Origin: Amoebidium appalachense
Lineage: Eukaryota; Protista; Ichthyosporea
Length of the DNA: 64,000 nt
NCBI GenBank assembly: GCA_963693365.1
Contig: CAVNZM010000001.1
Span: 11,186,161-11,250,160 of the forward strand
Direction: 5' to 3'
The translations under genes and the position numbers were made by a program. Below the pieces are notes generated by a model. It worked only from the letters and a program-made list of their open reading frames with translations, made no database searches and had not been told where the DNA came from. Shown one piece after another: positions 24,573 through 47,680 of this stretch. Each line of letters begins with the position of its first letter. Position 1 is the first letter of the stretch.

Positions 24573-27500
24573 TTATTGATACATGGACATTGGGCCGGAT
24601 GTTGCCGAATCGACTGACGTCAGTCTTTTTGCCTCGACCCTTGCCGCTTCCTCTAAATCCGATTGCACTACCGTGGAACGATCGGAATTCGATTGTGGGG
24701 AAAAGGTTGTTTCTGATTGGTCGATCGTCGTTCCATCGGTGATCTTGATCGGCTGTTGACGTTGGAGTGCTCTGTCGACATTGTATGTTGCAATGAGAAT
24801 AATCCCCCCCCCCCCCCCCCCCCCCCCCCCCCCCTCCCCCCCAAAAAAAAAAAAAAAAAAAAAAAAAGAAAGAAAGAAAAAGAAGAAGGGAACGGGAAAA
24901 ATAAGAAAAGAAAACAAAAGACAAGGGAAAAACCCGATAGCCCCCCTCCCTCCCCCCCCCCCCCCCCCCTCCCCCCAAACACGCACGCACGCACGCACGC
25001 ACGCACGCACGCACGCACGCACGCACGCACGCACGCACGCACGCACGCACGCACGCACGCACGCACGCACGCACGCACGCACGCACGCACGCACGCACGC
25101 ACGCACGCACGCACGCACGCACGCACGCACACACACACACCTACCCACACCATTTTCTTTCAGGGAAGAAGGATCGTGCGTGTTCGCGAGAAGTCGCGTG
25201 CACAAGCGTGTGATTGATAGAAAGGGGTGGCGGAAGGGGTTGGGTGGATTTTAACCTTTCTGCAGCCACAAGCACGGCAGTCTTGATGCTGCCGGGGGTG
25301 AAGGGATAACGCCTGGCCAGCGCCTGCAAATTTACATCGGAACCGAGGGGGGTTTTATCCGGCACCATGCTCTGTCGAGTATAGCGTCAGTACACGCTGC
25401 AAATTGCTCAAGTTTGGAACACCTCGAGAGATGCGCAAAGCAACATTGCCATTATGTGCTTAGAAGAATGAATTTCAACACTTCGAGCTAGCGTGCATGC
25501 TTTGTACCCAGAGAAATGGTGTAACACAGTAGGCATGTAAAGGCATGTTGGTAGTCAGCAGGCAAAGTTGCTCATCGGGGTGGGGGCGAGGCGGCGAGGG
25601 GGAAGGGGGGGGAGGGGGAAGGGGGGGAGGGGGGAGAGGGGTGTAGTGAGGGGGAATACACAGAATTTCCCATCAGTCGACGAAAGCAGGGAAAGGCGAA
25701 AAAAGTGGTGCACAGGGGGAAGAGGTGTTCCCCTAAGGGGGGGCCGGGGGCAGGTGTGTGCATGCGTCCCGCGGAAGGGGGGGGGGGGGGGGATGTCTGA
25801 CCTTCCACAATTTTAATCTTGTTTCTTCTGACGGCAGGTCAAAGTGGACATGGAAGTTGAGCCTGGGGTGGAATTGGGTTAAAGAAAAGCAGGAATCTTC
25901 AATACACAATGATGAAAGCATGTATTAGCACAGAGGGTGAGGAAGGCATGTATGGCAAAACCAGGAAAGGAGAAACATTACACATACATAACATGGATAT
26001 GCCTCACCCGCACACCTAAGACACACAGACGTTGAAACACACACACACACGTCACATGCATGTAACCCCCCCCCCCCCCCCCCCCCCCCCCCCCCCCCCC
26101 CCCCCCCCCCCCCCTCTCCCTCCCTCCCTCCCTCCCCATTTCCAACACACACACACTCGTGGCCATTAACACAAACACACACACACGCACACCAAAACTT
26201 TCACCCACCCACACCCACACCCAACCATAGTATCACACCGCACAGTCATACCTCTTGAACAGCCCGGGTCCGATCAGAGTTCTGTCACGGCCAATCACCA
26301 CTACCACCCCATGATATCTGCATCACATGGTTCGATCCAGGGTTAGGAAACAGCCCACGGCAACCAGACACACACCACCAGAACTCACTTGCAATAACCC
26401 GTACATGCTCAATCTTGTATATCCCCCTCCCCCCCCCCCCCCCCTCCCCCCCCCCGCCCCTCAACCCACCCACCTACCCATGCCCCCTTGTCCGTCCCCC
26501 CAAGGTGGGGTATTCATGCCTCATCTCTTTTCCGGGGCAATGCAAGCAAGCGCAACTCCATATCTTAAAACTCCCCCCCCCCCCCCCCCCCCCCCCCCCC
26601 CTTCGTCCTTCCCAATACATACCCATCATCCTGGTCATATTTTCTCACGAATCATGTTGAATATCCCTATCGCTCTACTTCCCTCCTCCCACCTCCCCCT
26701 CCCCCCAAAAAACCGGGAAAAAAAAAAAAAAAAGAACGCCATCAAACCCCCACCTGTTAATATGGAACAGTAGTGTCGACAGCTCAGCCCAGTGGGGCAC
26801 ACTGCCCGGCCCAATGCTGCCATTTGCCCACAAATGGACCCCCCCAAAGAACCCATCCGCCTCTGCAAAATGACTCGTCAGTAACCCCCCTCCCCCCCCC
26901 CCCCCCAGCCACACACACACACCCTCTTTCTCTCCGGGCCTCGAATACCCCCCACTCCCCCCCCTCAGGTCCGCTGTAAGTTTGTCACGTGCACGTCTTC
27001 TACGGCGTCGGTAAGAATTAGAGCATATGGTCTGAGATCTGGTTCGTTGTGTGTGAGTGTGGGCTCTCGTACACACAAGATGTGTCTGTGTGTGTGTGTG
27101 GGTACATTCGGCTGATCTGTGTTTATGCCTTTATCCGTTCGTGTGTGTGAGCATTTGTGTTGCTTCACGTGTGCATGTGTGTATGTGCGTATTTGTGTAA
27201 ATGGGTGTGTGTGCTTATGTTCTGTGTGCATGTGTGTATGTGCGCGTGTGACCTTTACCTTCCAACACCACCACCGCATTGCTACTTCTTGCATCGGCAA
27301 ACACTGAGTCCATTGTTTTGGCCAAACCGCTGGCCACACGGGCAAGGAGTTCACTACAGTTGATCTCCTTTAATGGTTGGCCCAGCTCGTAGCTGCAAGA
27401 ATTAAAGATAATGTTATTATGGGCATATCTAAAAGGCCAATTCGGCTTTCTTAAGAATCGAGAAAACGATAAAAGGGATACCTTTAACGGCTAACCCAGC

Positions 27501-45500: not shown

Positions 45501-47680
45501 AAGGGAGAGACGGGTGGGGAAGGGGTGGGAACCTTCGTCTGTGGCCGAGGTGAGTGATGCCAAGGGATAGAAGGTCTGCCTCTGTGAGATCAAGCAGCAC
45601 ATCTCCATCAACCTCGGCATCGGAAAACACCTGTGTGTGTGTGTGTGTGTGTGTGTGTGTGTGTGTGTGTGTGCATGTGTGTGTGTGTGTGTGTGTGTGC
45701 GTGCGTGTGTGCGTGCGTGCGTGCGTGTGTGTGTGTGTGTGTGTGTGTGTGTGTGTGGGGTGGGTGGGTGGGTGGGTGGGTGGGTGGGTGGGTGTGTTTG
45801 TGTGTGTGTGTGTGTGTGTTCGTGTGTGTGTGTGTTTGTGTGCGCGCGAGCGCCCCCACGTGTGTGTGCGCGCACAGGCACATGCATGCGTGTACATGTG
45901 TGAGTGTGTGTACGCGCGTGAACGCAAGTGTTTATATGTTGGGCAACGGGTGCGCGGCCATGCATATAGCGGTCATGCATATAGCGGTCATGCATTTAGC
46001 GGTCATGCATTGCACGTGTGCATTGTCTGGTGTGTGAGTGTGGGTGGGTTCTTTGTAGGTGTTTGATCTACATGTGTGAGACGAAGGGGGAGGGGAGGGG
46101 CGGGGGGGGGTGAGTTGGTTGTGTGTGCTGTCGGGCCTCTGGTGCAGCTTATAACTGTGGGTTGATATGTCTTTCATCTCCCTCCCTCCGTCCCTACTTC
46201 GTTTATTCTTCCCTCCCTCCGTCCCCCCCCCTTCCCCCCTTGCTCTGCCTCCCCCACCCTATCTCCCTTTATACCTTTCCATCTTTCTTTTCTCTCCCAC
46301 CCCTCCTCCTCCTCCCTACCTCCTCCTCCAATGCAACTTTTTCTCTCTCTCGTGTGGTATATGTGTAGTAAAAAACTTTTTTTGTGTCAGTGCCTCGGGG
46401 GATGGATGAGAAGGGCGAGATGAAAGGGGGGAGGGGGGGGGCGGGAGGGAGGGGGGGGAATCATTAACACGTTGATGTATTTCATCTCACAAAGAACAGG
46501 CTTCGAGCTATAGACATCGAGACTAGTACTTCGACGAAGGGTCGAAAGGCGAGATCTAAATGGCCCTGCACACTTAGATGGAGGGGGGAGGGGGGGGGGG
46601 GGGGGGGGGGGGGGGGGGGGAGGGGGGGGGGGGGGGGGGGGGGGGGGGGGGGGGGGGGGGGGGGGGGGGACACAAAAAACCACGACAGGCATAAGGACGG
46701 GAGAGTGGAAGGAATGCCAGCATAAAGAACAAGGAGCACGGGAAATAGATGTGAGTGGAAAGAAAAAGATAGATTGACGTGAAGGGGCAAGGAAAGAGGG
46801 AAGAAGCAAGGGTGGTATCACAACGAGAAAAGGGGATGTGGAAGCATACGGGAGAAACAACGGGATAAGATCTCAATTTTAGATATACAATACGGCGCGC
46901 ACACTTGCACCGCCACCACTCCCCCCCCTCCCCCCTCCCCTCTTTCCCTCCCTTTCCCCCCCCCTCCCGCCCCTCTCTCTCTCTTCCCCCTCCCCCTCCC
47001 TCCGGGTCTCCCTTCTCTCTCCCTATCATTCTCAGTTCTTTGTCTCTCACTCACACACACACTCTCTCTCTCACTCTCTCTCTCTTTCTCTCTCTCTCTC
47101 TCTCTCTCTCTTTCTCTCCCTCTCTCTTTCTCTCTCTCTCTCTCTCTATATATATATATATATATATATATATATATATATATATATGTATATGTATATG
47201 TATATATATCTCTTCCTCCCGGCCTGCCTGCGTCCCTCCCTCCCTGGTCCCTTCCCCCCTCACCCCCTCCCTCCCTCCCTCCCCCCTTCCCTCCCTCCAA
47301 CTCTCCTAGTGTCTCTCTCTGTCTCTGTCTCTCCCCAAACCCCCCACATCTCTCTCACAATCCCCCTCTCTCTCACTCTTCCACAGACCCTCTCTAGCCT
47401 TATTTCTCGTCTCTCTCTCTCTCTCTCTCTCTCTCTCTCTCTCTCTCTCTCTCTCTGTCTGTCTGTCTGTCTCTGTCTCTCTCTCTCTCTCTCTCTCTCT
47501 CTCTCTCTCTCTCTCTCTCTCTCTCTCTCTCTCTCTCTCTCTCTCCCCCCCCCCCCCCCCCCCCCGGGCTGCCCTGCCTTCCCTCTCTCATACCTTGGCA
47601 AACTGGCCAAGGCCCCTCTCGTTCAACCACCGGCCCACATCCTCAACGGTCCAGCCTTCCACCTCACTCGTATGAACCAT
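24573..47680 (-). CDS. SAM-domain, duplicated helical/winged-helix-like module, tandem AAA+ ATPase (Afp15/Pvc15-like family), roughly 27-30 exons
   Basis: SAM: 47594-47680 [29 protein letters not shown] + 45533-45630 [32 protein letters not shown] + ~44370-44553 RLLRELAHI. Middle exons at ~43718-43928, 43066-43200, 42030-42077, 41622-41793, 40878-40968, 40380-40460, 38041-38240, 37350-37407, 36491-36559, 35987-36049, 35251-35465, 34532-34609, 33801-33860. AAA1: 33349-33440 [13 protein letters not shown] + 32983-33083 [11 protein letters not shown]; 32247-32346 AILFFDECE; 31475-31587 [30 protein letters not shown]; 30849-30936 [15 protein letters not shown]; 30240-30324 [15 protein letters not shown]2: 28024-28130 [13 protein letters not shown]; 27259-27392 VVVLE + 26754-26863 EAD; 26252-26317; 25802-25862; 25256-25371; last exon 24573-24771 ..MSMYQ*. 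Linker exons at 39.1-40.3 kb and 42.0 kb are less certain. Confidence 0.9.
24980..25140. repeat. (GCAC)n tetranucleotide microsatellite; similar arrays at ~1987-2090, 3634-3760 and 23735-23840
   Basis: Perfect acgc/gcac array read directly; source of the HART/VRAC pseudo-ORFs. Confidence 0.95.
38277..38782. repeat. (GT)n microsatellite, intronic; representative of many similar arrays (e.g. 6072-6470, 13236-13414, 42523-42683, 51363-51620, 56151-56398, 59364-59517)
   Basis: Direct reading of dinucleotide arrays. Confidence 0.95.
45959..46010. repeat. Minisatellite, 15-bp unit catgcatatagcggt, ~3.5 copies, in the first intron of the AAA gene
   Basis: catgcatatagcggt catgcatatagcggt catgcatttagcggt catgcat read directly. 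Confidence 0.9.

Follow-up and report, generated by a model that had tools for sequence, protein, structure and literature searches.

The 64,000-nucleotide (nt) stretch of Amoebidium appalachense DNA analyzed here, referred to as the window (assembly GCA_963693365.1, contig CAVNZM010000001.1, positions 11,186,161 to 11,250,160), carries on its minus strand a gene for a SAM-AAA protein, hereafter the window gene and the window protein; all coordinates are window positions. The 31 joined exons formed a reading frame of 3504 nt from an ATG at 47680 to a TAA ending at 24573, which had no internal stop codon and encoded 1167 amino acids (aa) in the domain order SAM, two PF22977-type modules of a helical hairpin and a winged helix, and two AAA rings, D1 and D2. 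As judged from the alignment, D1 is intact but non-gripping and D2 is decayed, and the window protein is the mirror image of Pvc15, an ATPase of the bacterial extracellular contractile injection systems (eCIS), and probably not an unfoldase. The features of the gene are as follows.

24573..47680, minus strand: whole gene, 31 coding exons, 1167 aa (exon joining and transcript contigs).
47594..47680, minus strand: exon 1, start codon and first two SAM helices (exon joining, SAM_1 at 6e-4; outside the transcript stretches compared).
45533..45630, minus strand: exon 2, SAM core with the acidic mid-loop (aa 32-48) and the start of the basic end helix (aa 56-67) (Pfam, transcript contigs, charge count).
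44370..44553, minus strand: exon 3, SAM end, linker and start of module 1 (exon joining and transcript contigs).
40878..43928, minus strand: exons 4-7, module 1, helical hairpin and winged helix, a diverged PF22977 copy (structure model, profile-profile comparison).
39294..40460, minus strand: exons 8-9, acidic low-complexity linker (aa 330-408, net -10) (charge count; low model confidence in the homologue).
34534..38239, minus strand: exons 10-15, module 2, the PF22977 winged-helix variant common to Afp15 (Pfam, transcript contigs).
29433..33861, minus strand: exons 16-23, AAA ring D1, which has all seven catalytic residues, lacks an aromatic pore loop 1 and has a short pore loop 2 (alignment).
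24573..29036, minus strand: exons 24-31, AAA ring D2 with Walker A K-S kept and the pore aromatic, Walker B Asp, sensor-1 Asn and first arginine finger changed (alignment).

All 30 introns were of the GT-AG type, had a mean length of 653 nt and were rich in homopolymer and dinucleotide runs. None of 2000 random exon chains of identical lengths was free of stop codons, the minimum being 13 in a chain. The conserved motifs fell into one frame of the spliced protein: PRI at aa 204, PRL at aa 490, the first Walker A at aa 669 (interrupted by the intron between exons 17 and 18), AILFFDECE at aa 724, a 14-residue motif at aa 753, DAMQRRI at aa 773, a 10-residue motif at aa 820 and the second Walker A at aa 924. 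An earlier note, made from the letters of the window, had placed a SAM domain and two AAA+ domains in one protein encoded by an intron-rich eukaryotic gene, and both claims were confirmed by the joined frame, the SAM_1 match in Pfam and the splicing evidence.

Transcript contigs were obtained from coded runs X1 and X2, labelled 'RNA?', from one sample of one study (a search with 30200-36400 listed three runs); none of these runs was recorded as RNA, and the evidence is the spliced joints and not the run label. The stretches compared exclude exons 1, 6-9 and 23-31. A 2130-nt contig of run X1 contained exons 2 (SAM), 3, 4 and 5 in order, with the introns skipped at CT..AC, and also exons 10, 14 and 15, and a 1644-nt contig of the same run contained exons 18-22 with a loose end matching the start of exon 23. 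Exon 9 was connected to exon 10 through a contig loose end. As a result, 7 of the 30 introns were confirmed as listed joints and three more via contig pieces or loose ends. The gaps between contig pieces equalled sums of modelled exons, namely 190 nt (exons 11-13), 439 nt (exons 6-9), 152 nt (exons 16-17), 106 nt (exon 15 plus 30 nt of exon 16) and 1178 nt (exons 21-31 plus 14 nt), and from this length arithmetic we infer that the two contigs share 30 nt in exon 16. A low-depth X1 contig at 33832-34351 reaches from exon 16 into the preceding intron, beginning at the exon 16 point where the two main contigs would overlap, and represents intron retention or pre-mRNA. The SAM exon was spliced to the downstream exons in the X1 contigs; SAM exons unspliced to the AAA exons, the outcome set beforehand as speaking against the earlier note, were not found. 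The window gene is a real spliced eukaryotic gene.

Next, relatives of the window protein were collected. Exon 14 gave 29 matches among 1.84 billion representatives, 27 of which were true; P0007 and P0019 were repeat-protein false positives and were dropped. A search with one exon-14 match as the query scored 7986 candidates, of which 214 proteins reached E<=1e-30; the best 120 of the 214 were listed. The eukaryotic names among the matches listed were Amoebozoa, sponges, Capsaspora, Naegleria, Willaertia, Anaeramoeba, Chromera, dinoflagellates, Prymnesium, a cercozoan, many oomycetes, a liverwort, a moss, Selaginella and Cryptomeria, so that the broad groups included Heterolobosea, alveolates, haptophytes and non-flowering land plants, together with a few bacteria; the prokaryotic records listed were named Planctomycetota and Handelsmanbacteria. 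A Chlorokybus member was found in a separate search. No fungal, bilaterian or angiosperm name was present among the 120 matches listed, and no search was aimed at absence in those groups. All annotations among the matches listed were 'hypothetical', 'uncharacterized' or generic AAA.

Pfam detected SAM in 3 of the 120 matches listed (Soliformovum, Physarum and Acanthamoeba) and in another member of a cluster, and Flabellula gave a weak match (E 0.007). This census of the listed matches and cluster members is a lower bound. The best full-length match of the spliced model was the SAM-bearing Soliformovum protein, with 41.8% identity over aa 7-1096, and the value for Physarum was 40.5%; the architecture of the window protein recurred in three amoebozoan records, transcript or genomic, that are independent of each other. 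When a word index was searched with exon 14 and with the SAM and module 1 region of the closest homologue, P0032, the query alone was returned, and exon 14 had no useful match among plasmids or PDB sequences. The initial metagenome scan gave no match, and a metagenome motif scan gave 65 loci, many of which were intron-split family genes. Prokaryotic members were incompletely sampled, as the GTDB scan covered 600 stretches; in a Planctomycetota sample, 2 of 401 genomes had a match, one of them a full member. Intron positions common to other eukaryotic loci (7 of 93 placed versus about 2.6% by chance) were not used, the placement being rough and the loci non-independent. Most family members have no SAM, and the window gene belongs to one branch of a widespread eukaryotic family. 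A literature search found bacterial eCIS papers only and no paper describing the family, most subscription journals lying outside its coverage, and no paper with PF22977 or four family accessions; members may appear under other names in classic AAA surveys, and the family is apparently undescribed.

The alignment of the family revealed which ring is intact. In D1, the Walker A K and T, the Walker B D and E, the sensor-1 N and both arginine fingers were all kept in 120 of 122 rows. The aromatic-x-G pore loop was present in D1 of none of 123 rows versus D2 of 58 of 121 rows; both pore-loop segments of D1 were short and variable, and the distance from Walker B to sensor 1 was 36 in D1 versus 43.5 in D2. 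D2 was fully canonical (8/8 motif positions) in 47 of 122 rows and kept at least seven positions in 57. The D2-intact rows came from sponges, Capsaspora, Anaeramoeba, Chromera, Prymnesium, dinoflagellates and prokaryotes, and their D2 resembled the active ring of Afp15, the eCIS ATPase of Serratia entomophila pADAP. The window D2 keeps four of the eight positions, and no row of its clade keeps more than five. It retains the Walker A K-S, but the pore aromatic is replaced by V, the Walker B D by E, the sensor-1 N by R and the first arginine finger by K. The claim that the window protein is an unfoldase was not supported, because D1 is without an aromatic pore loop and the ring orthologous to the Pvc15 motor, D2, has decayed in the window protein; the quoted Afp15 signature motifs were located in D1, which is not the orthologue of the Afp15 active ring. 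On a 2.8-kb contig (L085:1-2775, G002), a Clp-protease gene is immediately followed by the gene of a Bacteroidia PF22977 protein with an active D1 and a decayed D2, an independent loss of D2 that is possibly protease-linked.

Trees were constructed with IQ-TREE from 64 rows (main) and 138 rows (larger). Eight archaeal Cdc48 domains served as the Cdc48 reference, while eukaryotic p97, NVL, Pex1 and NSF and also Pvc15 were left out; the Cdc48 and FtsH labels were assigned by search and the PAN, ARC and Ycf46 labels were read from position and size. In the 64-row tree, family D2 grouped with Afp15-type D2 (support 99/95) and family D1 joined the D1 rings of bacterial PF22977-D1-D2 proteins that stand alone (100/99), and the rings of the family, the Afp15 type and the stand-alone proteins were set apart from archaeal Cdc48, PAN, FtsH, ARC-like, Ycf46-like and IteA-like rows (99/97). 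The kinship with Afp15-type over Cdc48-type ATPases that the earlier note had put forward was upheld, since one clade of the family and Cdc48 was rejected by the approximately unbiased test (p-AU 6e-73, with archaeal Cdc48 as the proxy). One clade of family D2, Afp15, L008 and L009 was also rejected (p-AU 0.003; three injection-locus ATPases tested). On the active ring of Afp15 the family D2 profile scored 201 bits versus 158 bits for the family D1 profile, and the ring orthologous to the Afp15/Pvc15 motor is, by sequence, D2. P0032 scored 160 bits against Afp15 and 79.8 and 61.6 bits against AFG2 and p97, its best solved-structure matches by sequence, and the spliced window model scored 91.7 bits against Afp15. 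Since family D1 and D2 group separately with their bacterial counterparts, the tandem predates the split from Afp15. On this phylogenetic evidence, the family is a sister lineage of the bacterial Afp15/Pvc15-type ATPases, which consist of a winged-helix domain (WHD), D1 and D2, and lies outside the sampled injection-system ATPases.

Within the family, the window protein grouped with the amoebozoan SAM copies and P0035/P0046 (100/99 with D2 left out). Monophyly of the eukaryotic members had a support of 93 in the Shimodaira-Hasegawa-like approximate likelihood ratio test in a quick rooted tree and a p-AU of 0.29 with D2 left out; the prokaryotic members were basal in the quick rooted tree, a position whose support was lost when D2 was left out. 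The sequences allow one early eukaryotic acquisition. All decayed-D2 lineages were grouped at 96-97 in the full trees, and this grouping, which may be long-branch attraction, was gone without D2. Oomycete and non-flowering land-plant members (P0106 and P0141 with P0111, P0135 and P0137) formed one clade (100/99, also without D2), which conflicts with the species phylogeny and reflects either hidden paralogy or transfer.

The genomic context of the relatives was also compared. Injection-system markers were found near many bacterial relatives of the Afp15-D2 type, L008 being a full locus, and several such relatives stood directly before giant or eCIS-core proteins. None of 10 injection-system markers was detected in the fetched DNA near the nearest relatives L097, L098 and L099 or on the 30-kb contig carrying the Planctomycetota member (L095, L213), whose neighbours were a histidine kinase and a 3854-aa LamG protein; tblastn with the 10 marker queries also gave no match in the window. 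The designation of the protein as injection-system-type was therefore not sustained, as its nearest bacterial relatives are stand-alone WHD-D1-D2 proteins with no marker in the fetched DNA and its grouping with three injection-locus ATPases was rejected. A Myxococcales genome (G004) had eight PF22977 matches, seven of them over the cut-off; three were near eCIS-core (DUF4157) genes and the others stood alone.

In the N-terminal half, SAM_1 was detected by Pfam in exon 2 (6.8e-9, over the cut-off) and exon 1 (6e-4, under the cut-off), and PF22977 ('winged helix domain, variant') was detected on exons 10 and 14, both over the cut-off. Module 1 (aa ~115-330) and module 2 (aa ~408-612) matched each other with a profile-profile probability of 97.5% (E 8e-12). 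The duplicated Afp15/Pvc15-type N-module proposed earlier thus proved real by profile comparison, module 1 being a diverged copy of module 2. As a lead, Atlas ties module 1 to PF22977-bearing bacterial clusters (12% of members). The structure was predicted with AlphaFold and 124 alignment rows for P0032, not for the window protein, and the model had a predicted local distance difference test score (pLDDT) of 84, a predicted template modelling score of 0.65 and a disordered linker. The N-region was predicted to be helical with one short beta-hairpin per module, and both modules shared one hairpin-helices-beta-hairpin order and closed with a winged-helix-like unit. By fold, the model was that of a type II AAA+ protein, and Foldseek, suggested by the earlier note, returned no match at E<=0.001 for its N-terminal part, on which VIA-align gave rows with Z<=9.1 that were generic helical hairpins.

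In the window SAM, charge is split between the mid-loop at aa 32-48, which is acidic (net -7), and the end helix at aa 56-67, which is basic (net +3). When three copies of the SAM of the Physarum homologue were modelled, the score was 0.48 versus 0.00 for the best control, with at least 95% of contacts agreeing between runs, a pLDDT of at least 90 and the mid-loop (28-48) placed against the end helix (52-61). The mark applied was attained by 21 of 30 solved pairs but by none of 23 single chains; on eukaryotes the counts were 17 of 29 and 0 of 30, respectively. The charge split of the window SAM matches the Physarum interface. The polymerisation proposed in the earlier note was retained in part: it is predicted for the Physarum homologue, and the window SAM is joined to it by charge alone. 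Pfam scans detected no effector or sensor domain in the window protein, including TIR, STAND and PARP domains.

With a probability that we place a little short of even, the window protein is an ATP-driven clustering switch or scaffold rather than a threading unfoldase. It would form rings, as do AAA+ proteins with intact arginine fingers, and D2 would bind nucleotide via its kept Walker A and only hold the ring together. D1 would hydrolyse ATP and move both hairpin/winged-helix modules, as p97 D1 moves its N domains according to PMC5543420. By analogy with Pvc15 as described in PMC11495950, the N-terminal modules would bind client proteins, which would be held and released with no pulling through the pore. 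The SAM may link rings head-to-tail or tether them to other SAM proteins. Perhaps the window protein partners the D2-intact paralogue found alongside it in some lineages. The D2-intact members of sponges, Capsaspora, alveolates, haptophytes and bacteria would be true motors, having reached a p97-like division of labour independently.

Several points weigh against this proposal. The row counts are not independent, as 37 rows of the D1/D2 motif table belong to the oomycete clade. The nearest rows, P0035 and P0046, have a decayed D2 and no detectable SAM (no Pfam family matched the N-terminus of P0035), and oomycete, plant and heterolobosean members likewise have a decayed D2 without SAM, so that a dead D2 does not depend on the presence of SAM. 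Canonical pore aromatics are dispensable in some AAA+ proteins. The N-terminal modules have no clear solved relative, the MarR-type Foldseek matches being weak (E>0.3), and the SAM model is one of a homologue in three copies and may merely reproduce solved SAM polymers. The function of every family member is inferred.

It is possible, though doubtful, that the window protein is instead the regulatory half of a hetero-oligomeric motor, like the paired AAA+ paralogues Pex1/Pex6 and AFG2A/AFG2B, in which a D2-intact paralogue would provide the pore grip and the window-type subunit the SAM targeting. Acanthamoeba-labelled clusters contain both types (P0044/P0156 with SAM and a decayed D2, the P0036 cluster with an intact D2), and each of four metagenome assemblies had one intron-rich locus of the D2-intact type and one of the window clade (L106/L113 with L112; L124 with L108/L114; L156 with L144; L110/L145 with L143). 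The D1 arginine fingers and Walker motifs are retained in both types. However, the two loci of a metagenome pair share an assembly and may belong to different organisms, no D2-intact partner lies within the window, and the oomycete and land-plant rows among the matches listed contained decayed-D2 copies only. In three of the four assemblies the D2-intact type was closest to sponge proteins, and these pairs hint at the presence of the window clade, without SAM, in opisthokonts.

An improbable alternative is a nucleic-acid or chromatin remodeller or reader acting through the two winged-helix modules, with SAM polymerisation spreading along the substrate. SAMD1, reportedly a chromatin-binding protein with SAM and a winged helix, was counted for it. 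Both predicted modules end in a winged-helix-like unit with weak Foldseek resemblance to MarR-family regulators such as MepR, matches that were not significant, and PMC11495950 likewise reports MarR-type likeness for the Pvc15 N domain, where that module serves protein cargo loading and nucleic-acid binding was not demonstrated. The position of many bacterial relatives directly before very large or eCIS-core proteins also points to protein clients.

The unfoldase mechanism of the earlier note, taken here as a self-sufficient unfoldase or segregase with a non-canonical D1 pore, would agree with the catalytically intact D1 of nearly all rows and with the overall fold of type II AAA+ unfoldases, yet it is quite improbable given the short, variable pore loops of D1, their lack of the aromatic in every row and the decayed window D2.

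Highly improbable is an immune or danger-signalling ATPase that, like SARM1 or SAMD9, would form a trigger-induced oligomer, a role to which nothing tested points, although the SAM is predicted to polymerise, the distribution is patchy and the best curated profile is that of the anti-phage ATPase IteA/IetA. That profile gave 130 bits versus a cut-off of 510, with Afp15 scoring alike, and the IteA-like rows fell outside the clade; the protein has no Pfam effector or sensor domain, and its ring is of the classical AAA type, unlike a STAND NTPase. Matches so strongly conserved and so low in copy number would be unlike an arms race, and neither a defence gene nor a subtilase toxin was seen among the neighbours scanned of the bacterial member L095, where no search was aimed at subtilase. 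A recent bacterial contaminant, a recent injection-system gene transfer or a mis-joined model has a negligible probability in spite of the few prokaryotic family members, in view of the GT-AG introns, the architecture recurring in three independent amoebozoan records, the window free of injection-system markers and the spliced transcript contigs, which rule out contamination and mis-joining unless they are chimeric.

Other features of the window were as follows.

19555-21381, minus strand: intronless 608-aa open reading frame in an intron-rich region, with a predicted membrane anchor, a Ser/Thr/Pro stalk and a right-handed beta-helix (PF13229 over the cut-off); a possible retrocopy or transferred surface protein.
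49730-52400, minus strand: terminal exons of a gene encoding a PARP catalytic domain (6e-11), which lies on the strand of the ATPase gene and ends some 2 kb upstream of it; the preceding exon resembles the end of a kinase C-lobe (by eye; no Pfam match).
61976-63417, minus strand: Q/A-rich frames that by eye resemble a retroelement gag region in decay, with no match in Pfam.
8000-15300, minus strand: at least one further intron-rich gene, represented by several exons that look coding and have no match in Pfam.

Among the other candidate exons of the window, 0 of 13 had a Pfam match.

The usual eukaryotic double-ring AAA+ remodellers (p97, NSF, Pex1/6, NVL and AFG2) belong to the Cdc48 clade. 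The present family has a different origin and occurs across most eukaryotic supergroups sampled. A broader scenario, which we regard as rather unlikely in its entirety, is that a sister of the bacterial ATPase that loads injection systems was adopted by early eukaryotes as a further double-ring remodeller outside that clade, and that duplication then gave a D2-motor subunit and a D2-dead, SAM-polymerising partner, the window gene, which would jointly capture particular clients and load or extract them; the family would have been overlooked because yeast, bilaterian and flowering-plant models seem to be without it. The relatives form a natural experiment, in which Pvc15 keeps D2 alone, the window branch D1 alone and the sponge, Capsaspora and alveolate members both, and these three patterns make the role of each ring and of the unexplained PF22977 domain testable. 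Acanthamoeba, Physarum, Capsaspora, Naegleria, Phytophthora and Selaginella are tractable hosts among the matches listed.

Finally, the window protein was compared with known systems. According to PMC11495950, Pvc15 has a deviant D1, its D2 is the sole ATPase and chaperone with a pore loop, Walker B, sensor 1 and two arginine fingers, and its N and D1 domains are needed for payload loading. Afp15 (PF22977 at 24-207, D1 decayed) and Pvc15 of Photorhabdus resemble the window protein in having a PF22977 N-domain followed by two AAA domains, with D2 orthologous. Unlike these, the window protein has in addition SAM and a second PF22977-like module and combines an active D1 with a decayed D2, whereas theirs are a dead D1 and a D2 motor; its gene is eukaryotic, has no injection-system genes in the window and is not nested with the three injection-locus ATPases. 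The stand-alone bacterial PF22977-D1-D2 ATPases of Myxococcota and Planctomycetota (L097, L098 and L099), themselves uncharacterised, are sister in both rings and share the active D1 without a pore loop, but have one N-module, no SAM and an intact D2.

Cdc48/p97, AFG2/Drg1, NVL/Rix7, NSF and Pex1/6 share the type II double-ring fold and were the best fold matches. In p97, as PMC5543420 describes, pore aromatics occur in D2 alone, D2 pulls and the D1 nucleotide state moves the N domains; the D2-intact family members share this layout of a non-gripping D1 and a gripping D2, whereas the window copy is without a pulling ring. The N-domain of the Cdc48/p97 group is a beta-barrel, in contrast to the helical/winged-helix N-region of the family (PF22977, no CDC48_N), and the group formed a separate clade with the archaeal proxy (TIGR01243 at 86 bits versus a cut-off of 803). 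IteA/IetA provided the best-scoring curated profile for the AAA rings (NF042959), but has a single ring, and the IteA-like rows were under the cut-off themselves. SARM1, SAMD9 and tankyrase are SAM-assembled enzymes, and an end-helix to mid-loop SAM assembly is predicted for the Physarum homologue, but the window protein is without their TIR, STAND or PARP domains; its rings are PF00004 with sensor 1 and arginine fingers, and STAND profiles gave P-loop-level scores only. In summary, the window protein differs from eCIS ATPases in ring pattern, locus and nesting and falls outside the Cdc48 clade, and with two predicted tandem AAA folds and, by alignment, a full catalytic set in D1, it resembles a type II AAA+ remodeller.

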